This document shows positions 9,319 to 59,306 of a stretch of DNA of 61,034 nt, piece after piece. Made by a program: the position numbers and the translations under genes. The stretch lies in assembly GCA_030592575.1 (NCBI GenBank), contig JAUVIV010000002.1, forward strand, positions 1 through 61,034, in the 5' to 3' direction. How positions within the stretch are numbered: position 1 is the first letter of the stretch; every line of letters begins with the position of its first letter. Under the pieces are notes generated by a model. The model was not told the DNA's origin and made no database searches. It worked only from the letters and a program-made list of their open reading frames with translations. The DNA is from a bacterium. GTDB lineage: Bacteria > Hydrothermota > UBA3073 > JACQXS01.

Positions 9319-9378
9319 ATGAATGATTTAGGGGAGTTCTGTGAAAGAAATGCAAATGTCTGCAAATGATTCAATGGG

Positions 9379-16093: not shown

Positions 16094-17575
16094 ATGAAAA
16101 GATGGGGATTTTTGATAGTGTTGGGAACTTGCAATTTGTATGGACAATGGGAAGCAGATAAAAGATTAACTGATTATCCCTATCCTAACTATGGTAGCTA
16201 CAATAATGCGTGGACAATAGTAGTGCAGGATACTATGGTGCATATCGTATGGGAACATAAAGAGATAACTAATGGTCCAGGTGAGCTTTATTATATAAGG
16301 TCGAGCAATTCAGGGAGTAGCTTTGAGCAGGATAAACCGCTAACTACAGAGGATTCTCATTGTCCTTCGGTAGCAGTTTCTGGTTCAATAGTTCATGTAG
16401 TTTGGGTAGACAAACGTGATGGTAACTGGGAGATATATTACAAGCGGTCAGTTAATAATGGTGAGACTTGGGGAATAGATAAGAAGTTACTTAATGCCCT
16501 TAACTCATGGTCTCCTTCGATAGCAGTTCGTGATTCAATAGTTCATGTAGTTTGGCAGGATTATCGTGATGACAGCTACCCGGAGATATATTACAAGCGG
16601 TCAGTTAATAATGGTGAGACATGGGAAGCTGATGAGAGACTAACCAATGACTCTGCTTCCTCATATAATCCTTCGGTAGCAGTTTCTGATTCAATAGTTC
16701 ATATTGTTTGGCAAGATTGGCGGGATAAGAACTGGAAAATATATTATAAACGGTCAATAGATGATGGAGAGACCTGGGGGATAGATGAGAGGATAAGTAG
16801 TAATGACCCTGCTTTCTCAAGGTATCCTTCGATAGCAGTTTGTGATTCAATAGTTCATGTGGTTTGGTATGATGAGCGGGATAGCAACAAGGAGATATAT
16901 TACAAGCGGTCAGTTAATAATGGGATACTTTGGGAAGATGATGAGAGGCTAACTAATGATACTGATAGTTCATCGTATCCTTCAATAGCAGTTTGTGATT
17001 CAGCAGTTCATGTAGTGTGGATGGATAATCGGGATGGCAACGAGGAGATATATTACAAGCGGTCAGTTGATAATGGGATACTTTGGGAAACCGACGAGAG
17101 ACTGACTAATGCTGCCTATTTGGCTGATCATGTTTCTGTAGCATGTTGGGATTGTTTTTATGATTATGATGTTCATATAGCATGGACAGATTATCGTAAT
17201 GGCTACCCGGAGATATATTACAAGCATCATAAATGTGAGGGTACAGATGTGAAGGAGAGAGATTCTTCGCCTTCGCCTCAGAATGACAAGTTAGAGATAT
17301 ATCCGAACCCATCTATCGGGAAAATCGTTATTCGTTATTTGTTAAGCGAAAATCGAAACAGTTATACAATTAACAATTTACGATTAACTATTCATGATAT
17401 ATCTGGCAGATTAGTAAAAACACTTTATTCCGGAACGCAGGAAAAAGGTGAACATACAATTAACATAAATAATGTAGGGACACGCCATAGCATGTCTCTA
17501 CCCAAAGGTATTTACTTTGTGAAAATGGAGACAAGTAATTTCAAGATAAAGAAAAAACTGACGATACTAAGATAG
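16094..17575 (+). CDS. BNR/Asp-box repeat beta-propeller protein with T9SS C-terminal sorting domain
   Basis: About 7 repeats of SIVHVVWxDxRDxNxEIYYKRSxxxGxTW (Asp-box SxDxGxTW variants); C-terminus ..GIYFVKMETSNFKIKKKLTILR. Confidence 0.7.
   Translation: MKRWGFLIVLGTCNLYGQWEADKRLTDYPYPNYGSYNNAWTIVVQDTMVHIVWEHKEITNGPGELYYIRSSNSGSSFEQDKPLTTEDSHCPSVAVSGSIVHVVWVDKRDGNWEIYYKRSVNNGETWGIDKKLLNALNSWSPSIAVRDSIVHVVWQDYRDDSYPEIYYKRSVNNGETWEADERLTNDSASSYNPSVAVSDSIVHIVWQDWRDKNWKIYYKRSIDDGETWGIDERISSNDPAFSRYPSIAVCDSIVHVVWYDERDSNKEIYYKRSVNNGILWEDDERLTNDTDSSSYPSIAVCDSAVHVVWMDNRDGNEEIYYKRSVDNGILWETDERLTNAAYLADHVSVACWDCFYDYDVHIAWTDYRNGYPEIYYKHHKCEGTDVKERDSSPSPQNDKLEIYPNPSIGKIVIRYLLSENRNSYTINNLRLTIHDISGRLVKTLYSGTQEKGEHTININNVGTRHSMSLPKGIYFVKMETSNFKIKKKLTILR
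17474..17501. repeat. decayed 28-bp GTAGGGACA..TCTCTAC palindrome inside a T9SS C-terminal domain
   Basis: GTAGGGACACGCCATAGCATGTCTCTAC; same length and termini as the perfect palindromes at 42656 and 43582; encodes VGTRHSMSLP. Confidence 0.5.
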
Positions 17576-17669
17576 TTAAAAAGATAGTCGGATGGTCTTA
17601 TGGTCATATTGTCGTATAGTTGGATGGAGGTTAGCATAGGAGATAGAGAGTTCTCTATAAAAAATAAAC

Positions 17670-17724
17670 GGGTAGGTTGAAGCCCTCGCTTCAACCTGAT
17701 GAGAGCAAAAGCTCTCATCTACCC
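17670..17724 (-). repeat. family-A double-hairpin REP-like element (inverted copy)
   Basis: GGGTAG-GTTGAAGC-cctc-GCTTCAAC..GATGAGAGC-aaaa-GCTCTCATC-TACCC; reverse complement of 51501..51555. Confidence 0.7.
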
Positions 17725-17743: not shown

Positions 17744-19207
17744 ATGGAAAAACATATAGGACCATATAGAGTATTAAAAGAACTTGGAAAAGGAGGAACA
17801 AGCACCTGTTACCTCACTGTTAAACCACCTCTGGAACGAGAAATTTTATTGAAAGTTCTTTATCCACAGTTTGCAGGGGATGCGGAGATTCTTTCAAGGT
17901 TTGAGCAAGAAGCTCGTATAATGTCTCGTCTTCGTCATCCAAATATACTGCAAGTACTTGATTTTGGAAAATTGGATGATACTTATTTTATTGCCGTTGA
18001 TTTTATACCGGGGGAGCTACTTGACAAAGTAATTACACAAAAGAAAATTACCACAGAAGAAGCAACTTCTATTATAATGGGAGTACTTCAAGCCCTTTCC
18101 TATGTTCATAAGAGAGGAATAATTCATAGAGATGTAAAACCTTCAAACATTCTTATAACCGAAGAAGGAATTCCAAAACTTACTGATTTCGGACTTGCAT
18201 GGGCTAAAAGTCTTCAAGGAATTACACAAGAAGGGACATTTCTCGGAACCCCAAGCTATATGTCATTAGAACAACTCAAAGGTGATAAAATTGACCAGCG
18301 TACGGATATTTATTCGCTGGGACTTGTTTGGATTGAGCTACTTACAGGTAAAAAAGCTTATCCGGGAGAAAATTACGGAGAAACTATCCAAAACATTCTT
18401 ACAAAACTTCCTGTAGGAATAGATAAATTAGAGCAAAAAGTTTCGCCTGAGCTTGCCAGTATTATAAAAAAGATGGTAGAAAAATCCAAAGAACAACGAT
18501 ACAAAAGTGCAGACAAAATTATATATGACATCAAAAAATTACAAGGTATACACAATACGTCTCTACAAAAAATGAAAGCGATAGAAATTCCTCGTTGGGT
18601 TGGATGGGCAATTGCAATAATATTTCTTGGATTTGTTGGATGGAATATTCAAGAACTTTATAGTCTGAAATCAGCCACAGAACTCGGAAGCCAGATGACA
18701 AAAATGAAAAGTCGCAAAGAAAAGAAATCATTCACTTCAGAAATAGAAGACATAATGATAGCAGACGCAATAAGCAATAATTCAGAAACCAGTAGCCAAC
18801 ATCCTTTGTATATACAGGTTTTACCTTATGCAAAAATTTATCTTAATGATAGTCTTATAGGAGAAACTCCTCCGGGATTACAGACAAAAGTTACTTCAGG
18901 AGAGTATGTTCTTACTTTTAAAAATCCACAATTTCCGTCAGTAACAAAGCAACTTGAAATAAAAGATGCTCAAAATATACAAATTAATTTATTGGAGGAA
19001 GTTTCATATCTTTCCTTTATTGTTAAGCCATGGGCAGATATATGGATAGATAAGGAACCTCATGGAACTACTCCTTTTGGAACTCCTTTGATTTTATCAT
19101 CGGGAAAACACGAAATAAGACTTCACAATCCAATTTACAAAGATTATGTGGATACATTGAATTTAGAAAAGGGAGATACATTACAAATTAAATTTACATT
19201 TCAATAA
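17744..19207 (+). CDS. Ser/Thr protein kinase with TM segment and C-terminal PEGA domains
   Basis: GKGGTS..K, HRDVKPSNIL, DFG, GTPSYMSLE; TM (WVGWAIAIIFLGFVGW); two PEGA-like units (AKIYLNDSLIGETP, ADIWIDKEPHGTTP); ATG at 17744 avoids the repeat. Confidence 0.85.
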   Translation: MEKHIGPYRVLKELGKGGTSTCYLTVKPPLEREILLKVLYPQFAGDAEILSRFEQEARIMSRLRHPNILQVLDFGKLDDTYFIAVDFIPGELLDKVITQKKITTEEATSIIMGVLQALSYVHKRGIIHRDVKPSNILITEEGIPKLTDFGLAWAKSLQGITQEGTFLGTPSYMSLEQLKGDKIDQRTDIYSLGLVWIELLTGKKAYPGENYGETIQNILTKLPVGIDKLEQKVSPELASIIKKMVEKSKEQRYKSADKIIYDIKKLQGIHNTSLQKMKAIEIPRWVGWAIAIIFLGFVGWNIQELYSLKSATELGSQMTKMKSRKEKKSFTSEIEDIMIADAISNNSETSSQHPLYIQVLPYAKIYLNDSLIGETPPGLQTKVTSGEYVLTFKNPQFPSVTKQLEIKDAQNIQINLLEEVSYLSFIVKPWADIWIDKEPHGTTPFGTPLILSSGKHEIRLHNPIYKDYVDTLNLEKGDTLQIKFTFQ

Positions 19208-19839
19208 TGATATTATTAACTTTATTTATAATATTACAATCTGACACATTGCAAAAGCTTTATGATAGCGGCAATTATTTTGCTGTTATCGAACAAGCCG
19301 AGACTGCGATTAAGGATACGAATTTGACTTTAGAAGATAGGACAGGGATTCATACTATACTTGCTTTTTGCTACGTGGCATTTGACAAACCAAGACTTGC
19401 CAAACTTGAATTTCTTGAAGCTCTCACTATTAACCCTAAATTAGAACTTGACCCTATGCTTACATCTCCTAAAATTATAAAGGTTTTTCAAGAAGCTAAA
19501 TCAAACTTCCGATTCTTTATGCGAGAAAAACAGGAAGTACAAAAAATCAAAAAAGATTTTACGGCATTCACTATTCCGGGCATATGGAATATTAAAAGAG
19601 GAAATAAGAAAAGAGGCTACTGCCTCTTAGGATGGAGTGGTACAAGTGTATTATCTTTGGGAATCTCTCATTATCAATGTGAAAAATATCACAAGGAATA
19701 TTTAGATGCCAGAATACCTGAGTTAATTGAAGCTAAGTACAAAAATTATAATCGTTGGTATCAAAGTAGAATATATTCTCTTGTTTCTTTTGCTGCAACT
19801 TATACTGTTAATCTTTTCTTATTAGCACTTTCTCCTTAG
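19207..19839 (+). CDS. hypothetical membrane protein (TPR-like N-terminal half)
   Basis: ATG overlaps the kinase stop codon by one base (TAATG: stop TAA 19205..19207, ATG 19207..19209); helical repeat-like N-terminal half; hydrophobic segments near the C-terminus. Confidence 0.4.
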   Translation: MILLTLFIILQSDTLQKLYDSGNYFAVIEQAETAIKDTNLTLEDRTGIHTILAFCYVAFDKPRLAKLEFLEALTINPKLELDPMLTSPKIIKVFQEAKSNFRFFMREKQEVQKIKKDFTAFTIPGIWNIKRGNKKRGYCLLGWSGTSVLSLGISHYQCEKYHKEYLDARIPELIEAKYKNYNRWYQSRIYSLVSFAATYTVNLFLLALSP

Positions 19840-19861: not shown

Positions 19862-20154
19862 TGTCATTGCGAGAAGCAAAGCAACGAAGCAATCTCTTAT
19901 CATACTATTAAAGATTGTTTAGCAGAGCCTGCCTGAGCAAGATTCTTCACGGAGTTTACCCTGAGGCAAAAGTTGAGATTCTTCACTTCGTTCAGAATGA
20001 CAGAGGAAGGGTTCAGAATGACAGCCGAAGGGTTCAGAATGACAGAGGAAAGGTTCAGAGAATTACAGGTGGAGGGCTCAGACTTGTCCTGAGCGGAAGC
20101 GAAGGAATAACAAGTGAAGAGTTCAGAACAACAAACGAATCACTCGCAATGACA
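19862..20154. repeat. composite repeat block bounded by a perfect 12-bp inverted repeat TGTCATTGCGAG / CTCGCAATGACA
   Basis: Inverted repeat at 19862..19873 and 20143..20154; interior 19937..20116 is colinear (inverted) with the insertion in prmC at 56878..57041. Confidence 0.6.
19990..20060 (+). repeat. tandem 21-bp repeat (GTTCAGAATGACAGnnGAAGG), 3 full units plus a partial
   Basis: Units at 19990, 20011 and 20032, with a partial unit at 20053; two units are present in the prmC copy. Confidence 0.8.
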
Positions 20155-20569
20155 ATTCTTACATTTCGCAGAAGTCTGTAGAATAAACATATTTAAATTT
20201 CTATTTTCTTTTTTGCCCTCCATAGTTTATAAATCTCTATTAACGATACAAGTAAACAAATTAAACCGATTTATCTGTTTTATCCGTTGAATCCGCTTAC
20301 CAATAATACAAGTATTTTCTATTTGTAAAAATTGCACTGGTTTTGCAATAATTACATACTATATAAACAAGTGATAAAATAAGTGTTTTACGGAAAACTG
20401 CTATTGAATTGAATCTTGTGTATATCTATCTTTTTGACATATAATTTGCTATCTTAAGTTATGAGATGAAAAAGATAATTATAATTTTAGGTATAAAAGG
20501 AGGTGCTATCCAGAATAAAATAGATGGAAGAAATATAAACATTAGTAGTTTTTATAAAAGGAGGAGAAA

Positions 20570-23206
20570 ATGAAAAGGGGACTTTTTCTTGCAAGTGTTT
20601 TAATCGGATTTGCTATTACAAGTTCTGTCTGGGCAAATCCTCAGCAACAGGCAGGTATATCCGGAACAGTAACTGATGAAGAAACAAAAAATCCAATTGC
20701 AGGAGCAGATGTTTGCATATATTTAAATCCTTGGACTTCACCAATAATATGTACTAACTCCGATAGCAGTGGTTATTACGAAGTAGAATTTGGATTACGT
20801 GGTTTAGGAGGAGATGTTGATACAAATTATGTTTATGTAGCCTGCTATAAAGCAACATATAAAGGAGAATGGTGGGACAATAAATTCTCACCACAAACTG
20901 CAGATTCTATTCAAGTTATAACAGGTCAAGTACACAATGAAATAGATTTTGCTCTTGGTGCAGGAACAGCAAGTGGGATTACTGGAAAAGTAGTAGAGCA
21001 GGGAAGTGGAATAGGAATAAACGATGCAACGATTTCAGTATATGCACTTCCAGATACTATTACTGTGCTTGAAACAACTTTTACGCAATCTAATGGCACT
21101 TATTATGTTTTATTACCGTCAGGATCTTATTTATTACATGCAGAAAAACAAGGATACGATGAAGGAACACCACAAATGGTGAATGTATCTACGGGAGAGA
21201 TAACCGATAATATTAACTTTACATTGGGATATTCTCAGGGAAATGGTGCAATTTCTGGAGTTGTAATGAGTGAAGACTCAATACAGCCTCTCAACGATGC
21301 TTATGTAGAACTTTATACAAATTTGGATAATTCTCCAATCGCTTTCCAGATGACTGAACAGAATGGTTTTTATAGATTTGCTCCTCTTAGTTCGGGGAAT
21401 TATTATATCCGTGTAGTAAAGTCAGGATTCATATCTGAATGGTGGGATAATAAATTGTTCCCATATGCTGATTCTATTCTTGTAGAAGGCCGTGAAGTTA
21501 CCGACATTGATTTTTATCTTGCAAAAGATGAGCCTACAGAGGAAGGAAAAGTAGCTGGTTGGGTAAAAGATGTAATAACTATGAATCCTATAGAAGGAGC
21601 TTACGTAAAGATTGTTGGCTCTAACGACCTCGGAACTTATACTGATTATCAGGGAAGATATTTAATAAAGAAAGTTCCAGCAGGAATGCATCAAGCCACA
21701 GCAAGTGCTGCAGGATTTTCACCTTCTCTGTCAGACACATTTGAAGTTATAGCTAATGAGTGCACCGAAGACATTAATTTCCTTCTCAATCCTGATTCTA
21801 CTGGTCTTCCAGCCCATATACATGGGATAGTCCTTTCAGAGGCAAACGGGCAACCTTTACCAAACGCTTTCGTCTCAGCTCTCTATATCGGAAGTAGCCA
21901 AATAGTTACCACAGTTAAGACTCAACGAAACGGTACCTACGCAATGACAGTTTCCGCTGGTGAATATAACATCCGAGCAAATGCTTATGGATTTGATGAA
22001 GAATACTTCTACGAAAATTCTAATGACACAATAGAAGTATTTCCAGGACAAGAAATATACAATATCAACTTTACTCTGAGTGCATCAGATAGGGGTGGAA
22101 TTTCAGGAACGATACTTGATACTGCAGGTATCGGCATACCAAATGCACAAGTTCATGCACAGGGAATTAGCAACTGGTTTAGAGGTAATGCTCAAACAGA
22201 TAGTACCGGAGCTTATTTCATAGACGGACTTCTACCTGGTTTCTATAAAGTACGAGCTGTTGCTACAGGATATAAGCGTGGAGCTTATCCACAACCTGTT
22301 GAAGTACTTACCGATTCTACGACTAAATTAATTGATATAGTACTGGAAGAACTGTCTTCTCAATCAGGCACAATCTCAGGAATTGTAACAGACGACTCAA
22401 CTTCTCTTCCTATACCTCATACACTAATTATGGTTTTCTCAAGAAAACTTCCGTTTGTTGGATATGCTGTTACTAATCAGAACGGCTTTTATGTTGTAAA
22501 AGATGTACCAGTTACTACTGATAGTAGTTTCTATGTTATCGCTTTAAGCCGAGAATATATTCCAGAATTCTATAATGGAGTTTATTTCTGGAAAGAAGCA
22601 ACTCTTATACCATCTCCTGACGATAATATTGATTTTGAACTTGGACGATTTGTATCAGGATTTAAAGGTATCTGTGGTAGAATCACTCAAGGAAAAGCCA
22701 GTGTAGATAATGCTATAATATATGCTATGGACGGCGAAGATATTGTTGGTGCTGCTTACTCAATGGACGATGGAAGTTACCTTATAGATCAATTACCTCC
22801 AGGAACTTATAACCTTAAAATATCAAAACCAGGATATGATGATATAATTTACGGTCCTATATCAGTAGTTGACCAAAACATATCAGGTGTAGATATTGAG
22901 ATTAAAACCACTGGAGTCTCTGAAGATAATACAACTTCTAAAAAGCAAGCATTACAACTATCCGTTACACCAAGCATTGCAAAGAATAACACTACAATAT
23001 ACTATACACTCCCAGAGAAAAGCAATGTAGAACTTTCGGTTTACAATGTTTCCGGAAGGAAAGTTGTAACACTTACTAAGGGAAGAATTAATTCCGGTAA
23101 TCATCATGCAATTCTCAATACACAAGAACTCACACAAGGTATATATTTCGTTAGACTTAGCGGAGGGAAAACTCAACTTACAAAGAAACTCATAATCCTG
23201 CAATAA
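20570..23206 (+). CDS. large secreted protein of tandem carboxypeptidase-regulatory-like (CarboxypepD_reg) domains with T9SS C-terminal domain
   Basis: GGAGG RBS; signal peptide; about 9 units of ..ISG.V.D..t..Pi..A.V......T...G.Y....L..G.Y.....; C-terminus ..GIYFVRLSGGKTQLTKKLIILQ. Confidence 0.7.
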   Translation: MKRGLFLASVLIGFAITSSVWANPQQQAGISGTVTDEETKNPIAGADVCIYLNPWTSPIICTNSDSSGYYEVEFGLRGLGGDVDTNYVYVACYKATYKGEWWDNKFSPQTADSIQVITGQVHNEIDFALGAGTASGITGKVVEQGSGIGINDATISVYALPDTITVLETTFTQSNGTYYVLLPSGSYLLHAEKQGYDEGTPQMVNVSTGEITDNINFTLGYSQGNGAISGVVMSEDSIQPLNDAYVELYTNLDNSPIAFQMTEQNGFYRFAPLSSGNYYIRVVKSGFISEWWDNKLFPYADSILVEGREVTDIDFYLAKDEPTEEGKVAGWVKDVITMNPIEGAYVKIVGSNDLGTYTDYQGRYLIKKVPAGMHQATASAAGFSPSLSDTFEVIANECTEDINFLLNPDSTGLPAHIHGIVLSEANGQPLPNAFVSALYIGSSQIVTTVKTQRNGTYAMTVSAGEYNIRANAYGFDEEYFYENSNDTIEVFPGQEIYNINFTLSASDRGGISGTILDTAGIGIPNAQVHAQGISNWFRGNAQTDSTGAYFIDGLLPGFYKVRAVATGYKRGAYPQPVEVLTDSTTKLIDIVLEELSSQSGTISGIVTDDSTSLPIPHTLIMVFSRKLPFVGYAVTNQNGFYVVKDVPVTTDSSFYVIALSREYIPEFYNGVYFWKEATLIPSPDDNIDFELGRFVSGFKGICGRITQGKASVDNAIIYAMDGEDIVGAAYSMDDGSYLIDQLPPGTYNLKISKPGYDDIIYGPISVVDQNISGVDIEIKTTGVSEDNTTSKKQALQLSVTPSIAKNNTTIYYTLPEKSNVELSVYNVSGRKVVTLTKGRINSGNHHAILNTQELTQGIYFVRLSGGKTQLTKKLIILQ

Positions 23207-41961: not shown

Positions 41962-43362
41962 TTATTTCTTTTCAATCTCTTCTTCTACTTTTCTTTTTGC
42001 TTCTTCCAAAAGTTCTTTACTTTCTTTTCTTAGTTTATGGCTTTCTTGTATCTTATCTGCAATTTGCTTTTGGATTTGTGGTTTGATTAGTGGGATTCTA
42101 ATTTTCTCAAAATCAGAAGGTTTTAAATGAGCAATTATAGCACCTCCTGAAAGTTGCTCTACTTGTAGTTTTGATAGAATGGAATTAAAAATCAAAGCTA
42201 AACATTCTTTTTCAAAATTTTGATATTTTTCTTTAAGAGTAAGCCTTAGAAATGCACTACTTAAAACACCTTTAACATCCTTTTGTAAAACATAACTAAT
42301 TCCAATTGTTCCATCTTTTGTAAATAAGATTTCTCCTTTATGGGGTTGGAAATCACTTTTTATTTCATTAAAATGTTCTTCTGCTATTTTCCTTGAAGTT
42401 TCTTCAATGCCAAAAATTGAAAAATCTGAAACTCTTACAAATTCTTTTCCGTCTTCCGTATAAGCATTTGTTCCAACTTCAATTCCTTTTTTCCAGTTTA
42501 TAATATTTCCAACAACATCAAATCCACCATTATAATTTTCAATCTTTTTAATAATTTCTTTATATTTTGGTTGAAAATATTCAGCATCAAATCTTTTGGC
42601 TCGTTCTACTTCTTTTTTTGTTGTTTCAAATGTGTTGGTTATTTTAAATGTGTTCGTAGGGACAGGTCGCGACCTGTCCCTACAATAATCATCCCCAAAA
42701 ATTTCTTTATTTAACAATTCTTCGGCTTCCTTGTAGAGTTGTTTTGATTGTGTTTGCTTTTGGTGTGCCTTTTTAAATTTTTTTTCAATATCTTTAATAA
42801 TATTGTCAGAAAAATTTGGAAATGGAATATTTAGAAGATAAAACGGTGCTATTTCAGGTTGCAAACCACCATACATTCCTTTATTAATCATTTCTCTACC
42901 ATATTTTGTATTCAGAAAAATAGTTAATAAATATGGATTAATGCTTCCACTTTTTAGGATAAAAGTATGTGATGAAGCAATAACTTGTCTTTCTTCATTA
43001 AACAAACAACACTGACCAAAATTAGCACCAGTTCTTGTAATAAGTATATCTTCTCTTGAAATAAGATTAGATTTCAATTTTTTAGCATGCTCTTGAGATA
43101 TAAAAACTTTATTTGACAAATCTAAAAAAAGAGGTCTTACGTTTTGTGCTCTCAAAAACAAAACATCGTTTTTCACATATTCTCTTTTTATTTCTTTAGG
43201 GTGATATATTTTTACTTCAAAATCTTTTAGTTTTTTGTTGCTTCCTTTTTCTAAAAGAAATTTAATATCTAAATAATCTTTTCTAAAAAACTCAGAATCA
43301 AATCTATGATTATGGCTTTCCGTAATTATGTCACTATATTTTATTATACTTATCTGTGCCAT
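41962..43362 (-). CDS. hsdS: restriction-modification specificity subunit (HsdS-like, two target-recognition domains)
   Basis: Two TRD-like halves, each followed by a helical conserved region (..KQLYKEAEELLNKEIFG.. and ..KLRKESKELLEEAKRKVEEEIEKK); ATG at 43362 lies 2 nt after the upstream stop. Confidence 0.8.
   Translation of the reverse strand: MAQISIIKYSDIITESHNHRFDSEFFRKDYLDIKFLLEKGSNKKLKDFEVKIYHPKEIKREYVKNDVLFLRAQNVRPLFLDLSNKVFISQEHAKKLKSNLISREDILITRTGANFGQCCLFNEERQVIASSHTFILKSGSINPYLLTIFLNTKYGREMINKGMYGGLQPEIAPFYLLNIPFPNFSDNIIKDIEKKFKKAHQKQTQSKQLYKEAEELLNKEIFGDDYCRDRSRPVPTNTFKITNTFETTKKEVERAKRFDAEYFQPKYKEIIKKIENYNGGFDVVGNIINWKKGIEVGTNAYTEDGKEFVRVSDFSIFGIEETSRKIAEEHFNEIKSDFQPHKGEILFTKDGTIGISYVLQKDVKGVLSSAFLRLTLKEKYQNFEKECLALIFNSILSKLQVEQLSGGAIIAHLKPSDFEKIRIPLIKPQIQKQIADKIQESHKLRKESKELLEEAKRKVEEEIEKK
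42656..42683. repeat. perfect 28-bp palindrome GTAGGGACAGGTCGCGACCTGTCCCTAC inside hsdS
   Basis: Exact self-complementarity; identical copy at 43582..43609; translated as CRDRSRPVPT just after the central conserved helix. Confidence 0.95.
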
Positions 43363-43364
43363 AT

Positions 43365-43892
43365 TTATTCCATATTTTGTAAATTGTTTTCGTCTAAATC
43401 CCATTTTAATGGATTGTCTATAATGTATTTACGGATATTATTTAATGATTTATCATTACGGATAATGTGGTCATAAAATGATCTTTGCCATTTGAATTGT
43501 ACCAATCCATTTTGATGTATTGACTTTGATGATGTGGTTTTGAATACACCAATCAATTCCGATAATGATTTTATTTTTACCGTAGGGACAGGTCGCGACC
43601 TGTCCCTACATTTATTATCAAAGTTATTATCAATTACCAATATTCCATGAAAATGATTTGGCATAACTATAAATTCGTCCAAACAAACATAACCATATTG
43701 ATTTTCCAACCATAACCATTGTCTTTTTACAATTTCTCCGTATTCATTTAAAATCATTTTTTCGTTTTCCATTCTCCCAAAATATGCTTCTTTCTCTTTC
43801 GTACAAATGCTTACAAAATAATATCCTTCTTGTGAATAATCATAATCTTTTAACCTGTTTAATTTACGATTTTTTAATTTAGGTTGCAACAT
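43365..43892 (-). CDS. HUH/Y1 single-strand DNA transposase-like protein (RAYT / IS200-like superfamily)
   Basis: ..YDYSQEGYYFVSICTK..; HUH motif MPNHFHGILVI; C-terminal catalytic-Tyr context RKYIIDNPLKW; 1-2 nt spacers to hsdM and hsdS. Confidence 0.7.
   Translation of the reverse strand: MLQPKLKNRKLNRLKDYDYSQEGYYFVSICTKEKEAYFGRMENEKMILNEYGEIVKRQWLWLENQYGYVCLDEFIVMPNHFHGILVIDNNFDNKCRDRSRPVPTVKIKSLSELIGVFKTTSSKSIHQNGLVQFKWQRSFYDHIIRNDKSLNNIRKYIIDNPLKWDLDENNLQNME
43582..43609. repeat. perfect 28-bp palindrome GTAGGGACAGGTCGCGACCTGTCCCTAC inside the Y1 gene
   Basis: Identical to 42656..42683; read in the same codon phase (CRDRSRPVPT) between the HUH motif and the catalytic Tyr. Confidence 0.95.
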
Positions 43893-43893
43893 A

Positions 43894-45939
43894 CTAATTA
43901 CTCCAAAAACTCAGTTTTTGTTTTACAGCCCATTTTTCAAAGGCATACGCAATTTCTGCTAAATCATGTTTTTGAATAAGATGATTATGCTCATCTAGTT
44001 TTCTTTCTCCGGTCTTTTCGTCAATCTCATAAATCTCTTGTCCGGAATTATCTTTCCCTGAATTTTCTGAAACTGCCATAAAAATAGGATAATCTTCAAC
44101 TTTCGGGTTTATTTCATCATCCCATTTTTGAACAAACAGAACAGATGTTTTTGTTCCCGTATGTGGTTTAAAAGTATTTCCATCAAGACCAATAACTGCA
44201 AGCAGTCTTGCTCTTTCCATAATAAAATCTCTGATTCTCTCATCAGAAGTATTATTAAATCTTCCTTGAGGTAACACAATTGCCATTCTTCCACCATCTT
44301 TTAGAAAATCTAAATTTCTTTCAATAAACAAAACATCTCTTGAAATTTTATTTATTTTCTTCCCTTTGTTAAAAGCGACATCATAGTTTGAAATAAGACG
44401 ACTATCTTTTATATCTCCTGCAAAAGGAGGATTTGCCATTACCATATCAAATTTAAATTCTTTCGGATTTTTTGGGTCTTTTGCTAAATCAAGAAGTCTT
44501 TGATAGCCATCATTATATGTTCTCATCCATTCTCTATCTTTTTGTTTTTCCGCCCATCTTGTATAGTCTAAACTATTAAGATGTAAAACATTCGTCCTCC
44601 CATCTCCTGAAATCATATTCAGTGTTCTGGCAACTCTTACAGATTTTTCATCAAAATCAATCCCAAAAACTTTATTTACATAGTCTTTTTGTTCAGAGGA
44701 AAGTTTCTGATTAGAAAAATTAGCAAATTGAGCTTTACCCTGATTTACAAGTTTTTTCCAAACATTAAAAAGAGTATGAACCGTAAAACCACAACTACCG
44801 CAAGCAGTATCAATCATATATTCATTTGGTTGCGGATTTATCATATAAACAGCCATATCAATTACATTTCTCGGAGTAAAATATTGCCCTTTTGCTCCTT
44901 TGGCTGATTTGTTTACAAGATATTCAAAAGCCTCATCAATTACCTGAAGATTAGAATTAAAAAGTTTTACATTTTGCAAAAAACCAACACAAATTTGCAA
45001 ATGATTTTCATCTGTAATCTTAAGAGGTTCTCCTTTTTCAAAAATACCAGGCCACTTATCTTTGGCTTTATTAAATAATTTATTAATTACTTCTTTGGTA
45101 TGATGTGCATCTCCACGACTTCTAAATTCTAATTTTCTAAAACCATCATTGCCAATATTAAGCAACAACAATTCTTTTTCTGTCAATCTGGGATTATCTT
45201 TCTTTGCTTCTTTTAAAAGAACTTCTATTGTAACTCTGTCCTCTGCGCTTTCCATTTCATCAAAAAGTTTTGTAAAAATGAGCTTGAAAACTTCTTCAAA
45301 AACATCAACACCGGCATTAGACAATACTTCGTCTTCCATTTCTTCAATCAAAGATTTTAGAGACTTTCTTTCTTCCGAAAGTCTATCTTTTTGCATTAAC
45401 TCAAAATATGTAAATATCTCATTTTTTACATCATCAATTGTTTCTGTTGCTTTTGGTATATCTGAAAGTGGCTCAAAGTAATTTGGGTCAAGTCTTTCAT
45501 AACAATCAATATCAACACCATTTGTCCAAACTGCAAGCGGGGCACCTGTTGCATTTGTATAACTTTTTAATTGATCTTTACCATCTTTTGCTTTATGTTT
45601 CTTCATTTCAAGAACACAGTAAACACTTGTTTTATCTATTTTATTAAGAATGACAATATCAGCAAGTTTCTTTTCTCTTCCAAAATTAACGGTAAATTCT
45701 ACTTGTATCAAATCTAAAGAATAATCATATTCATTGATGAGTTTATCAATCATCAATTGTCTTACAATCTCTTCCGGTTTAACTTGAATATCCTTTTTTC
45801 TTTTCAAGCATTTAAGAAAATACTTGCCATTTTTCTCAAAGATATTTTTTTCAATTCTATCAATACTTTCAGATGAAAAAATTATCAGGTCGTATTTGCC
45901 AGTAGATTTTATTAATTGTAATATTTGTATATTATTCAT
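43894..45939 (-). CDS. hsdM: N6-adenine DNA methyltransferase (HsdM-like) fused to an N-terminal PD-(D/E)xK-like (HsdR_N-type) domain
   Basis: Gamma-class motifs ..DTACGSCGF.. (motif I) and ..MANPPFAG.. (motif IV); N-terminus ..LADIVILNK..VYCVLEMKKHK..QLKSY..AVWTNG.. resembles a PD-(D/E)xK core. Confidence 0.8.
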   Translation of the reverse strand: MNNIQILQLIKSTGKYDLIIFSSESIDRIEKNIFEKNGKYFLKCLKRKKDIQVKPEEIVRQLMIDKLINEYDYSLDLIQVEFTVNFGREKKLADIVILNKIDKTSVYCVLEMKKHKAKDGKDQLKSYTNATGAPLAVWTNGVDIDCYERLDPNYFEPLSDIPKATETIDDVKNEIFTYFELMQKDRLSEERKSLKSLIEEMEDEVLSNAGVDVFEEVFKLIFTKLFDEMESAEDRVTIEVLLKEAKKDNPRLTEKELLLLNIGNDGFRKLEFRSRGDAHHTKEVINKLFNKAKDKWPGIFEKGEPLKITDENHLQICVGFLQNVKLFNSNLQVIDEAFEYLVNKSAKGAKGQYFTPRNVIDMAVYMINPQPNEYMIDTACGSCGFTVHTLFNVWKKLVNQGKAQFANFSNQKLSSEQKDYVNKVFGIDFDEKSVRVARTLNMISGDGRTNVLHLNSLDYTRWAEKQKDREWMRTYNDGYQRLLDLAKDPKNPKEFKFDMVMANPPFAGDIKDSRLISNYDVAFNKGKKINKISRDVLFIERNLDFLKDGGRMAIVLPQGRFNNTSDERIRDFIMERARLLAVIGLDGNTFKPHTGTKTSVLFVQKWDDEINPKVEDYPIFMAVSENSGKDNSGQEIYEIDEKTGERKLDEHNHLIQKHDLAEIAYAFEKWAVKQKLSFWSN

Positions 45940-51476: not shown

Positions 51477-51500
51477 TTTTACCTCACTTTACTTCACACT

Positions 51501-51555
51501 GGGTAGATGAAAGCCTCTGCTCTCATCTGGTTGAAGCGAGGGCTTCAACCTACCC
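51501..51555 (+). repeat. family-A double-hairpin REP-like element
   Basis: GGGTAGATGAAAGC-ctct-GCTCTCATC-TGGTTGAAGC-gag-GGCTTCAACCTACCC. Confidence 0.7.
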
Positions 51556-56270: not shown

Positions 56271-56340
56271 TTAAAATTTATCTAATACAAATTTTAAAAC
56301 ATTGAGTATGTGATAGCCCTCTTTTGCACTTCTTATAAAT

Positions 56341-57429
56341 ATGGCAAAAACATTCGCTTGTCAATTTGATGATACGTCAAAAAATTTTTCTAAAGAGATA
56401 AGAGGAATTCTTGTTCAAACAACTCAAATCCTTAAAAATAATCATTTCAAAAATCCCTCCAAAGAAGCAATTATACTCGTAGCTTGTGCATTGAAAATAG
56501 ACAAAATATCTCTCTATCTTCATTACAACAAAATTTTATCAGATTTAGAGCAAGCTTCTATATCCAAACTCCTCGCAAGAAGACTTGAGCACGAACCACT
56601 GGAATATTTAACAGGACAGGTAAATTTTATGGGAATTGATTTTATGATTGAACCTCCGATTCTTATTCCAAGACCAGAGACTGAAGTTTTAGTTGAAACT
56701 CTTGTGAAATTAGCAAAAAGTAGAAACGATTCGCAAACCGCTCCTACCATAATATTTGATATAGGAACAGGTTCCGGAATAATCGGAATAACAAGTTTAA
56801 AGTTTTTACCCAACGCAAGAGTTTACGCTTCAGATATAATCGACCTCCACCTTGCCAAAAGAAACGCAATTAAACTTTCCACCTGTCATTCCTTTACTTC
56901 CGCTCAGGACAAGTCTGAGCCCACCTGTCATTCTGAACCCTTCGGCTGTCATTCTGAACGAAGTGAAGAATCTCAATTTTTGCCTCAGGATAAACTCCGT
57001 GAAGAATCTCGCGGTTGTCAGAGTAAGCCCCGTAAAGAGTCTAAACTTAAAATATCTGAAAGAATAAGTTTTTTAAGAAGCGATTTACTGCAATCATTTA
57101 AAAGAAAAGCAGATTTCATTGTATCAAATCCTCCTTATATTTCGAGTTCTGAAATACCCTCACTTCAGCCGGAAATAAAGTTATTTGAATCACATACCGC
57201 ATTAGATGGTGGAGAAGATGGACTATTCTTTATTAGAGAACTAATAAGAACTTCCGGAAATAACCTTAAGAAAAGCGGAATGCTCTTGTTAGAGATTTCC
57301 CCGGAGCAAACTGATACTATAGGAAAAGAAGCTCTAAAGTATTTTGAATCTGTAGAGTTTATAAAAGATTTTTTTGGAAGAACAAGGGTCTTCCTTGCTA
57401 AATATCCAAAAACAGGAACATACTTTTAA
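56341..57429 (+). CDS. prmC: release-factor glutamine N5-methyltransferase PrmC/HemK carrying a 57-codon repeat-derived insertion
   Basis: SAM motif IFDIGTGSGIIG; catalytic FIVSNPPYI; follows prfA as usual; the segment between the two motifs is repeat DNA. Confidence 0.8.
   Translation: MAKTFACQFDDTSKNFSKEIRGILVQTTQILKNNHFKNPSKEAIILVACALKIDKISLYLHYNKILSDLEQASISKLLARRLEHEPLEYLTGQVNFMGIDFMIEPPILIPRPETEVLVETLVKLAKSRNDSQTAPTIIFDIGTGSGIIGITSLKFLPNARVYASDIIDLHLAKRNAIKLSTCHSFTSAQDKSEPTCHSEPFGCHSERSEESQFLPQDKLREESRGCQSKPRKESKLKISERISFLRSDLLQSFKRKADFIVSNPPYISSSEIPSLQPEIKLFESHTALDGGEDGLFFIRELIRTSGNNLKKSGMLLLEISPEQTDTIGKEALKYFESVEFIKDFFGRTRVFLAKYPKTGTYF
56878..57041 (-). mobile_element. 164-bp mosaic repeat element inserted in frame in prmC, flanked by the 7-bp direct repeat TAAACTT
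   Basis: Colinear inverted homologue of 19937..20116 (with one fewer 21-bp unit); TAAACTT at 56871..56877 and 57042..57048; 164+7=171 nt (57 codons), no stop codons. Confidence 0.7.
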
Positions 57430-57566
57430 TCCCATTGGATACTCTCGATTCTCTCGCACTTAAAAACTTGACGAAATATAATTCTATAATAAGCTTTTTA
57501 AAAATAAAAAAACAAAATGCTCTTAACTCAATCCGTAATATACAACAATAATTATACTCTGAATAA

Positions 57567-57630
57567 TGTAGAGGCGAACTCACGTGTTCGCCCAAATCAT
57601 CAAGGCAGACACACAGGTCTGCCCCCTACA
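57567..57630 (+). repeat. family-C double-hairpin REP-like element
   Basis: TGTAGAGGCGAAC-tcacgt-GTTCGCCC..GGCAGAC-acacag-GTCTGCCCCCTACA; near-identical copy at 59244..59306. Confidence 0.75.
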
Positions 57631-57683: not shown

Positions 57684-59152
57684 ATGAAAAGAATATTTAG
57701 TTTTATCTGGATAATTACAGGAACACAATTTATTGTGTCCACACTCGCAATTGCACAGACACCTAATACTTTGTGGACAAAAACTTACGGAGGAGCTTCT
57801 TCTGATAAGGGTTGCTCTGTTCAAGAATGTATAAATGGAGGTTTTATAATCACAGGAAGGACAAGGTCTTTTGGTGCTGGCGATTATGATGTCTATCTTA
57901 TAAGAATAGATGCAAACAGTGATACTCTGTGGACTAAAACTTATGGCGGAAATGGTTGTGATGAGGGTTATTATATTCAAGAATGTACAGATGAGGGCTT
58001 TATAATTACAGGAGCAACAACGTCTTTTGGTGCTGGCTCCTACGATGTCTATCTTATAAGGACAGATTCAAATGGTGATACACTATGGACTAAAACTTAT
58101 GGAGGAACTACTGATGATTGGGGCTGTTCTGTTCAAGAATGTACAGATGAGGGCTTTATAATTACAGGAGCAACAACGTCTTTTGGTGCTGGCTTTTCTG
58201 ATGTCTATCTTATAAGAACAAACGCAGATGGTGATACACTATGGACTAAAACTTATGGAGGAACTACTGATGATTGGAGTAATTCTATAGATAAATGTAC
58301 AGAAGGAGGATTTGTAATTACAGGAACAACAAAGTCTTTTGGTACTGGCTCTTCTGATGTCTATCTTATAAGAACAAACGCAGATGGTGATACACTATGG
58401 ACTAGGACTTATGGTGGAACTAACAATGATGAGGGATGGTCTGTTCAGGAGTGTGCAGGAGGTGGTTTTATAATCACAGGAATGACAAGGTCTTTTGGTG
58501 CTGGCTCCTATGATGTCTATCTTATAAGAACAAACACAGATGGTGATACTTTGTGGACAAGAACTTATGGTGGAACTTGTTGTGAGTATGGCAATTCTGT
58601 AGATAAATGTACAGAAGGAGGTTTTATAATTACAGGAATGACAACTTCTTTTGATGATGGTTATGAAAATGTCTATCTTGTAAGGACAAACTCAGATGGT
58701 GATACACTATGGACACAAATTTACAGTGGAATTGGTTGTGCTTGGGGATGCTCTGTTCAGGAGTGTGCAGGTGGTGGCTTTATAATCACAGGAATGACAA
58801 CGGCTGGCAATAGTGATGTCTATCTTATAAGGATTTCCGAGACAGGAGTGGAAGAAAGAGATTGCTTCACTGACGCTCACAATGACAGGTTGGAAGTATA
58901 TCCGAATCCGTGTAGCAAAAAAACCGTTATTCCTTAAACGAAAATCGTAACGATTTACGATTAACAATTCATGATATATCAGGTAGAATGATTAAAAGTC
59001 TTTATTCCGGGACTCAAGAAAAGGGTGAGCATACAATTCTCCTAAATAATGTAGTGACATGCCATGGCATGTCACTATCTGTAGGCATTTATTTCATCAG
59101 ATTTGAAACAGATGATTTCAAGATAACAAAGAAATTTACAATAATTCGTTAA
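57684..59152 (+). pseudogene. eight-bladed repeat (beta-propeller-like) secreted protein whose T9SS C-terminal domain is out of frame at an A7 tract
   Basis: ORF 57684..58937 stops 12 nt after A7 (58917..58923); the shifted frame is open from 58916 and encodes the rest of a T9SS domain to 59152; one extra A restores NRYSLNENRNDLRLTIHD.., matching the paralogue at 17290..17575. Confidence 0.7.
59051..59078. repeat. 28-bp near-perfect palindrome GTAGTGACATGCCATGGCATGTCACTAT inside the T9SS C-terminal domain
   Basis: 22-bp perfect core; same position in the domain as 17474..17501; encodes VVTCHGMSLS. Confidence 0.6.
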
Positions 59153-59219: not shown

Positions 59220-59243
59220 CAAAAAAAACACTCCGAAAATAAA

Positions 59244-59306
59244 TGTAGGGGCGAACCCACGTGTTCGCCCAAATCATCAAGGCAGACACACAGGTCTGCC
59301 TCTACA
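59244..59306 (+). repeat. family-C double-hairpin REP-like element
   Basis: TGTAGGGGCGAAC-ccacgt-GTTCGCCC..GGCAGAC-acacag-GTCTGCCTCTACA. Confidence 0.75.

Follow-up and report, generated by a model that had tools for sequence, protein, structure and literature searches.

We analyzed positions 1 to 61,034 of the forward strand of contig JAUVIV010000002.1, assembly GCA_030592575.1 (the window, 61,034 nt), in which the gene of the release-factor N5-glutamine methyltransferase, prmC, carries repeat DNA within its reading frame. The gene lies directly downstream of prfA, an order that is kept in relatives. Its product scored 209.7 bits against the curated PrmC equivalog TIGR03534 (cut-off 199.1) and contains both PF17827 (PrmC_N) and PF05175, with the S-adenosylmethionine (SAM) motif GTGSG at residue 142 and the catalytic NPPY at residue 263. 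These features place the protein in the PrmC/HemK family, and its best matches, by sequence and by fold, were HemK/PrmC structures (1nv8/2b3t). All residues invariant in a 66-sequence alignment, NPPY among them, are present in the window PrmC, as the construction of the list dictates. The features at the locus are as follows.

56341..57429, + strand: prmC (release-factor N5-glutamine methyltransferase), 362 aa, frame intact including the insert
56871..56877, + strand: left TAAACTT of a 7-bp direct repeat, read in codons ..A TTA AAC TT.. (I-K-L); a single copy, GATTAAACTTAAAG, at the empty site of relatives L001 and L002
56878..57041, + strand: inserted mosaic repeat, 164 nt, GC content 48% against 33-34% in the host, three of six frames open
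57042..57048, + strand: right TAAACTT of the 7-bp direct repeat, placed from the sequence and the empty-site comparison

The insertion in prmC and its empty site

Between GTGSG and NPPY the window PrmC has 57 extra residues (180-236), which read STCHSFTSAQDKSEPTCHSEPFGCHSERSEESQFLPQDKLREESRGCQSKPRKESKL. A first-pass annotation, made from the sequence alone, had taken these residues for a repeat element inserted in frame and bordered by a duplicated heptamer. Its positions were exact, with TAAACTT at 56871-56877 and 57042-57048 and 164 nt between them; both heptamers are in the same codon phase, and the open reading frame (ORF) runs through the 57 codons, 171 nt, without a stop. In an alignment with T. 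maritima HemK, PrmC 41-177 matched HemK 36-167 and PrmC 235-352 matched HemK 168-278, HemK being contiguous (167 to 168) exactly where the window PrmC has its extra residues. We recovered 6168 homologues at E <= 1e-20 and checked the length of the best 120, every one of which had 252-325 aa compared to the 362 aa of the window PrmC; among these best 120 of 6168, no comparable segment was found in unrelated lineages, such a segment being what the annotation had named in advance as speaking against an insertion. The 12 aligned homologues have zero residues at the position of the insert, including the four closest, which are WOR-3 relatives and 76-79% identical to the window PrmC outside the insert. 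One of these four (P0005) reads NAIKLKVSERIRFLRGD, the very sequence that had been predicted for precise excision and for a normal PrmC linker.

DNA from two of these WOR-3 relatives (L001 and L002) provided the empty site, GCGATTAAACTTAAAGTATCTGAAAGAATAAG (GATTAAACTTAAAGTATCTGAAAG across the junction), in which TAAACTT occurs once. The filled site of the window reads GCAATTAAACTT-(164 nt)-TAAACTTAAAATATCTGAAAGAATAAG, or ATTAAACTT(164 nt)TAAACTTAAAATATCTGAAAG in short form, against ..ATTAAACTT|AAAATATC.. expected at the junction of an empty allele. The net gain at the filled site is 171 nt, 7 nt of which repeat the target, and none of the element's modules is present in the relatives' contigs L001-L003. 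Because the DNA of the relatives shows an empty site with one heptamer, we regard the 171-nt insertion and its TAAACTT direct repeat as real; the relatives' protein and DNA agree on its exact boundaries. We consider it highly probable that prmC has received a mosaic repeat in frame and that the protein tolerates it, a statement that includes no single insertion chemistry.

Modular structure of the element

The inserted 164 nt were resolved into five modules.

56878..56921, + strand: module A, with a hairpin GCTCAG-GACAAGT-CTGAGC at 56902-56920 and a 26-mer identical in the intergenic copy described below
56922..56945, + strand: module B, one 21-nt unit (C)TGTCATTCTGAACCCTTCGG, encodes CHSEPFG
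56946..56974, + strand: module C, an inverted-repeat/hairpin module CTGTC-ATTCT-GAACGAAGTGA-AGAAT-CTC, encodes CHSERSEES
56984..57010, + strand: module D, CTCAGGATAAACTCCGTGAAGAATCTC, encodes PQDKLREES; conserved in the copies of other phyla
57017..57042, + strand: module D', a diverged tandem copy of D at a 33-nt offset, its last base being the first T of the right TAAACTT

Module A had a predicted DNA fold of -5 kcal/mol (z -2.3), and module D' aligned to the second D of D-D arrangements in three other loci (L054, L079 and L103). The number of B units varies, with one in prmC, two exact and one degenerate in the intergenic copy, and one to three in metagenome copies. The words repeated inside the insert are spaced by 42, 21, 36 and 33 nt; because these spacings are all multiples of three, TGT-CAT-TC is read as C-H-S three times, and a further Cys is also encoded. 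Of first-order Markov simulations, 1.7% had three stop-free frames out of six, as did 0.7% of the 164-nt windows of the host. The search for terminal inverted repeats (6-nt seed, 8-nt minimum) returned 0 inverted pairs in 56850-57070. As RNA, the whole element had a minimum free energy of -37.1 compared to -34.9±3.6 for shuffles (z -0.6), and as DNA a z of +0.55. Since its global fold is no better than that of shuffled sequence, we rejected a palindromic element of the kind known as Rickettsia palindromic elements (RPEs). Rfam gave nothing above gathering thresholds in the window and only chance-level matches around the insert. Intein and intron readings were also rejected, with no match to an intron or other RNA family around the insert.

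A second copy in the window

A second mosaic lies between two ORFs in the opposite orientation, flanked by further modules.

19912..20120, - strand: intergenic mosaic copy (A, degenerate B, B, B, C, D, D') between ORFs 19207..19839 and 20570..23206
19862..19896, + strand: outer module TGTCATTGCGAG..., flanking the intergenic copy and forming a 12-nt perfect inverted repeat with 20143-20154
20121..20154, - strand: outer module TGTCATTGCGAGTGATTCGTTTGTTGTTCTGAAC on the other flank, whose ...TCTGAAC abuts module A where prmC has ..TTAAAC

A repeat search paired 19937-20024 with 56925-57012 (88 nt, 94%, inverted) and 20071-20123 with 56873-56925 (53 nt, 87%, inverted), and the two copies are 87-94% identical over about 140 nt. 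The first-pass annotation had called the insert a colinear inverted homologue of this block from end to end. Gapped local alignment bore this out strongly over 56873-57012, where the intergenic copy is distinguished mainly by two additional units of 21 nt. For the final 29 nt (57013-57041) the similarity to that copy is weak; they repeat the preceding module in diverged form. The annotation's unit count was also correct, TGTCATTCTGAAC having two exact occurrences in the insert and three in the intergenic block. Module probes of 20 and 26 nt matched only these two places in the window, with 0 matches expected in shuffles. The linkers are conserved between the two window copies, which shows that the mosaic was moved or copied as a block. 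The sequence before the left end differs, reading ..TTCTGAACTC in the intergenic copy and ..ATTAAACTTT in prmC.

An ORF of 88 codons also runs through the intergenic copy (19915-20181, + strand; MFSRACLSKILHGVYPEAKVEILHFVQNDRGRVQNDSRRVQNDRGKV...), one of the spurious hypothetical type, and P0121 and P0122 are similar spurious, repeat-derived ORFs from other samples.

Consequences for the protein

An AlphaFold2 model built from the 66-sequence alignment had a mean predicted local distance difference test score (pLDDT) of 86.6, with more than 95 in the core. By Foldseek, the model reached template modeling (TM) scores of 0.89-0.91, target-normalised, against HemK/PrmC crystal structures. The insert was modeled as coil with pLDDT 35-59 between helix 170-181 and strand 242-246, so that the predicted PrmC fold is kept and the 57 residues form an unstructured excursion between helix and strand, as the first-pass annotation had supposed in calling them a surface loop. 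The frame in use has a grand average of hydropathy (GRAVY) of -1.51, whereas the insert's two further open frames are hydrophobic (+0.57 and +0.25). Textbook topology puts the helix-to-strand loops of class I methyltransferases at the edge of the sheet opposite the cofactor/substrate pocket, and an excursion at this point is therefore plausible without loss of function. The strongly hydrophilic, predicted-disordered insert is probably a floppy loop; since it would leave the Rossmann sheet at the edge opposite the SAM/NPPY pocket, the insert-bearing PrmC most likely still works as an enzyme, as far as the model indicates.

Protein searches with the insert peptide in one frame and with the three open frames concatenated returned only 2 and 5 short hypothetical ORFs, respectively, and no Pfam domain. 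Peptides expected from the translated insert include SEPTCHSEPFGCHSER and SEESQFLPQDK. No second real protein with the mosaic was found among 5.8 billion sequences, a scale at which E-values are very insensitive for such short queries.

At the other end of the gene, prfA and prmC are separated by 70 nt (56271-56340) in the window and overlap by 7 nt in the relatives (start MLEEFSEE..). The N-terminus of the window PrmC is longer than those of the relatives and different (MAKTFACQFDDTSKNFSKE..), and the real start codon may be other than the listed one.

The repeat family in other genomes

The modules were found well outside the window. The exact C module and its GAGCGAAGCGA variant were located in 42 IMG/VR contigs that differ widely in base composition; most instances lie at the ends of genes, and inverted pairs are frequent. 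The B-to-C junction was present in 62 JGI metagenome contigs and in six GTDB species genomes, four of Nitrospirota, one of Thermodesulfobacteriota and one of Ca. Stahlbacteria (a WOR-3 relative, 38% GC). An 85-nt core of the prmC insert (B-C-linker-D) was 84-92% identical to copies in metagenome-assembled genomes (MAGs) of these three lineages. Because those copies stand in non-coding contexts, we conclude that the DNA of the insert originated outside prmC. The linkers vary among the copies of the family. A distant blastn search of a plasmid collection gave no match to the element, and a limited literature search found no published description of the cross-phylum 85-nt core.

Sediment contigs contain units, of 190-260 nt and with terminal inverted repeats GAGACTGTGTCGCAAT.../...ATTGCGACACAGTCTC, in which the core is the left arm. 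Complete units of about this size with the B-C-D core were seen in L058, L062, L063, L064, L099, L114, L117 and others. Outside these units, the sequences differ between copies and are reverse-complementary within a copy (e.g. CCCCTCCCCCTTAA...CAAGGGGGGAGG), which gives the impression of a unit placed in the middle of other palindromes. The D modules in other loci continue with TAA...

Substitutions in the arms of module C compensate each other across instances, T-A to C-G at two positions and G-C to A-T beside the central G-N-A triplet, and the stem is ATTCT/AGAAT in the window with ACCCT/AGGGT and ATCCT/AGGAT variants elsewhere. These changes fit a hairpin or a dyad binding site, to judge from a biased sample of sequences. 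The candidate GNA-triloop/tandem G·A hairpin is d(GTCATTCTGAGCGAAGCGAAGAATC), with ACGAAGT as a variant; GCGAAGC resembles the very stable d(GCGAAGC) mini-hairpin.

Near-identical contigs (L083 versus L081/L088/L110, and L073 versus L080/L109) are distinguished by the insertion of a palindromic module of 30 nt, CCCGCCTGCCATAGCTGTGCGGCGGGCAGG, which has no duplication at its flanks, and in L080/L109 a CCTGCCTGCCGGCAGGCA-type module lies in the loop of an inverted C module. In L048 (the same as L072 and L093; 1-947, 54% GC), a B-C-D mosaic lies between pseudouridine synthase and peptidase genes. This contig also encodes a Y1_Tnp + DnaA_C-like protein about 3 kb away, the sole such co-occurrence in approximately 740 kb of fetched loci. 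A tblastn search with this Y1 transposase found nothing in the window and, across all loci, only that contig, three times.

A transposase-like gene and other repeats in the window

Reading the translations of the window revealed a homologue of the transposases associated with repetitive extragenic palindromic (REP) sequences, the REP-associated tyrosine transposases (RAYTs).

43365..43892, - strand: RAYT-like Y1 (HUH) transposase homologue, 175 aa, between hsdM-like 43894..45939 and hsdS-like 41962..43404

The protein matched NF047646 with E 1.1e-16 and 61.1 bits, below the cut-off of 80, and Pfam Y1_Tnp with 20.5 bits. The best PDB match was 4er8, TnpArep (E. coli TnpA-REP), whose HUH and Tyr motifs align with those of the window protein. 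No other candidate for a trans-acting enzyme of the repeat modules is encoded in the window, and this one might have acted on the prmC element. A 28-nt perfect palindrome, GTAGGGACAGGTCGCGACCTGTCCCTAC, lies in frame inside the RAYT-like gene (43582-43609) and encodes CRDRSRPVPT; without these 10 residues, the family score rose from 61.1 to 63.9 bits.

The same palindrome is also in frame in the neighbouring type I restriction-modification specificity gene (42656-42683; ORF 41962..43404, - strand), where the encoded CRDRSRPVPT separates the two protein halves; the DNA fold of the palindrome is -13 kcal/mol (z -6.8). Two ORFs with the sorting tail of the type IX secretion system (T9SS), 16094..17575 and 57684..58937, have in-frame C-type modules (17262-17288 and 58860-58887) just before LE(I/V)YPNP, read as RDSSPSPQNDK and RDCFTDAHNDR. 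GTAG...CTAC hairpins lie at 17473-17500 and 59051-59078, in or beside the Por_Secre_tail domain. The rest of the sorting domain (58948-59143) falls beyond the stop at 58937 and is 78% identical to 17371-17566, and for this reason ORF 57684..58937 may be disrupted. Intergenic REPIN-like families with GGGTAG...CTACCC or GTAGGGG...CCCCTAC outer stems around one or two hairpins were seen at 2941-2997, 17667-17723 and 51498-51554; at 9373/10076/51568; and at 57565-57623 and 59242-59300. Altogether, the window has 10 perfect GC-rich hairpins (stem >= 8 bp) compared to 0-2 in shuffles.

How the element may have entered prmC

We propose that a pre-assembled mosaic (A-B-C-D-D', 164 nt), resembling REP sequences and the bacterial interspersed mosaic elements (BIMEs) built from them, entered the prmC of a bacterium that is WOR-3-like, to judge by its closest PrmC homologues. 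The entry point would have been a single TTAAACTTAAA in the linker that joins helix B to strand 3 in the methyltransferase domain, and the insertion would have left TAAACTT at either side. The gene stays open because element and repeat together make 171 nt with no stop in frame and with module spacings in multiples of three. The insert would then be selfish or neutral DNA that passed the filter of selection, with no functional domain. Several observations weigh against parts of this proposal. The whole mosaic is known in two copies only. Module A had 0 matches in IMG/VR, neither A nor D' was found in the 110 fetched loci of other organisms, and the C-D junction probe GAAGAATCTCAAYTTTTGCCTCAGG had 0 matches in genome_contigs and metagenome_contigs, collections without the source genome. 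The intergenic copy has no flanking 7-bp repeat and is embedded among further modules. Module C has a weak predicted fold (-0.8 kcal/mol with standard parameters), its label as a hairpin resting on covariation in a biased sample. On the side of the protein, the low-pLDDT loop is a prediction and no proof of exposure, and PrmC could be impaired or decaying.

The first-pass annotation, whose interpretation we find supported on the whole, had spoken of a mobile element with a target-site duplication. The direct repeat itself is real, with one TAAACTT at the empty site; the claim is borne out only that far. The intergenic copy has no flanking 7-bp repeat, the ends do not delimit a discrete unit there and terminal inverted repeats are lacking. 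We give a little less than an even chance to integration or template switching in which the target TAAAC(TT) paired with the TCTGAAC(T/C) core that recurs in the element. Because the heptamer resembles this core, homology-guided integration is as plausible as a staggered cut by a transposase; the similarity to TGAAC is a weak one, 5/7 and noticed post hoc. Guidance by homology is consistent with the missing terminal inverted repeats, with a left end that lies within an inter-unit linker, with the TAA.. that follows D modules elsewhere, and with the 30-nt module polymorphism that left no duplication. Several of these observations also tell against a classical miniature inverted-repeat transposable element (MITE), moved in trans by the transposase of an insertion sequence (IS) with a 7-bp staggered cut, in which case TAAACTT would be a true duplication of the target site. 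The prmC copy lacks any inverted repeat of at least 8 nt and the terminal repeats of the sediment units, its left end is inside a linker, polymorphic modules of the family show no duplication, and the intergenic copy has different neighbours and no flanking duplication. A MITE would nevertheless account for the perfect 7-bp direct repeat with its single copy at the empty site, for a small element of at least two copies with no coding capacity of its own, and for the sediment units of about 190-260 nt, which contain the B-C-D core and end in inverted repeats; we judge it less likely than not. Single-strand insertion of the IS200/IS605 or RAYT type by a Y1 (HUH) enzyme, 3' of a short recognised sequence and with one TAAACTT borne by the element, appears unlikely. 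Y1 enzymes act on single-stranded DNA hairpins and make no target duplication. The RAYT-like protein encoded in the window, the conserved inverted repeat of module C with its compensatory changes and central G-N-A triplet, and the nesting of modules in the centres of other palindromes all agree with such an event. On the other hand, the 5' GTAG that characterises REPs is missing from the modules of the prmC insert, the RAYT match does not reach its curated cut-off, Y1 genes are not enriched near the copies (one distinct case in the loci of about 740 kb) and the intergenic copy does not end in TAAACTT.

Readings in which nothing was inserted, or in which the insert is never translated, fared worse. 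An adaptive, lineage-specific domain of PrmC, such as a Cys/His-rich metal-binding or interaction loop from which the intergenic copy was derived, would suit a hydrophilic peptide with three CHS motifs, another Cys and an intact frame. It is very improbable given that the closest orthologues have no such segment, that the core is non-coding repeat DNA in other phyla, and that AlphaFold2 gave no structure and peptide searches only short domain-less hypothetical ORFs. We give scarcely any credence to a repeat-induced mis-join in a metagenome assembly. The contig is probably of metagenome origin and the element is present twice in the window, but a mis-join would put different loci at the two sides, whereas here the two flanks belong to one gene, keep its frame and share a perfect 7-bp repeat; the copies also differ at 6-13% of positions and in unit number. 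Least credible of all is an insert that goes untranslated, either through translational bypassing with take-off and landing on AAA-CTT, for which T4 gene 60 and the yeast mitochondrial byps are precedents, or through removal from the RNA. In favour of such a system, the two ends carry identical heptamers in one codon phase, and the insert is richer in GC than its host. Yet there is no stop or rare-codon trap after the first CTT, no match to an intron or other RNA family and an unremarkable RNA fold (z -0.6), and no bypass is needed because the 171 nt are stop-free and in frame.

Comparison with known repeat systems

REP/BIME repeats and the RAYT (TnpA-REP) transposases of proteobacteria were reportedly described by Nunvar in 2010, Bertels and Rainey in 2011 and Ton-Hoang in 2012. 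The prmC element is like them in being a mosaic of short imperfect palindromes (A and C) with variable linkers and unit numbers; the window, moreover, has a RAYT homologue and other repeats with GTAG at the start and CTAC at the end. By definition, REP/BIMEs lie outside genes. The prmC copy is intragenic, with only the second copy intergenic, and its modules start with TGTC instead of GTAG. The RAYT-like ORF of the window (61 bits compared to a cut-off of 80) contains a GTAG-type palindrome instead of being flanked by such repeats. The BOX elements of Streptococcus pneumoniae (boxA-boxB(n)-boxC) are intergenic, confined to one genus and in some cases contain small ORFs, and we know of no flanking duplication for them. 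Their likeness is one of design, that is, modules with a variable short internal unit (the 21-nt B, in one to three copies), with no sequence relation expected.

Bacterial MITEs (Correia, ERIC and Anabaena MITEs) are small, multicopy elements with no transposase and with occasional in-frame intragenic copies (PMC10969869). The prmC element may resemble them by its 164 nt, below a limit of about 300 bp, its lack of an ORF of its own, its two copies in 61 kb and its flanking direct repeat, and differs in that the terminal inverted repeats that define MITEs are absent from the prmC copy.

The closest parallel in effect is provided by the RPEs (Ogata et al. 2000, 2002), short non-autonomous repeats that lie in frame in unrelated housekeeping genes, where the peptide segment they add is considered compatible with the host protein's fold and function (PMC10969869). 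Like an RPE (about 100-150 bp), the prmC insert is a short non-autonomous repeat in frame that keeps the ORF and sits at a position compatible with the fold, and further short modules are in frame in hsdS, the RAYT-like gene and the two T9SS-tail proteins of the window. Unlike an RPE, it is not one long palindrome: it is a mosaic with variable unit number, flanked by a 7-bp direct repeat, and its core spans phyla, while RPEs are confined to one genus of another phylum. Being non-palindromic, mosaic and from another phylum, the element falls, by structure and host, outside the RPE family.

The core identity of approximately 90% across phyla of very different base composition would be hard to explain other than by horizontal spread or a conserved protein or structure. 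A bolder and rather unlikely reading is that the insert is the product of an undescribed mosaic-repeat family spreading horizontally over at least four lineages (WOR-3-like, Ca. Stahlbacteria, Nitrospirota and Thermodesulfobacteriota). Its modules would be compatible with ORFs (phased in threes, stop-free in three frames), and 84-92% identical across genomes of 34-60% GC, and RAYT-like Y1 enzymes would carry them, in single-stranded form, to the centres of palindromes and occasionally into genes. If this is true, the family would seed new disordered peptide loops there. We regard the repeat family as a more interesting lead than the single prmC insertion, and its recognition would improve the annotation of MAGs, where the modules pollute gene calls with recurrent hypothetical-ORF peptides (CHSERSEES, VILNEVKNL and RFFTSFRMT). 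In-frame selfish repeats in genes of essential pathways have so far been documented mainly in the obligate intracellular Rickettsia, a precedent now 25 years old. The clean pair of empty and filled sites in an uncultivated lineage of the free-living type suggests that the process is more general and that sizeable disordered loops can be added to conserved enzymes, and a horizontally spreading family of the kind outlined above would extend the RPE phenomenon to free-living uncultivated bacteria.

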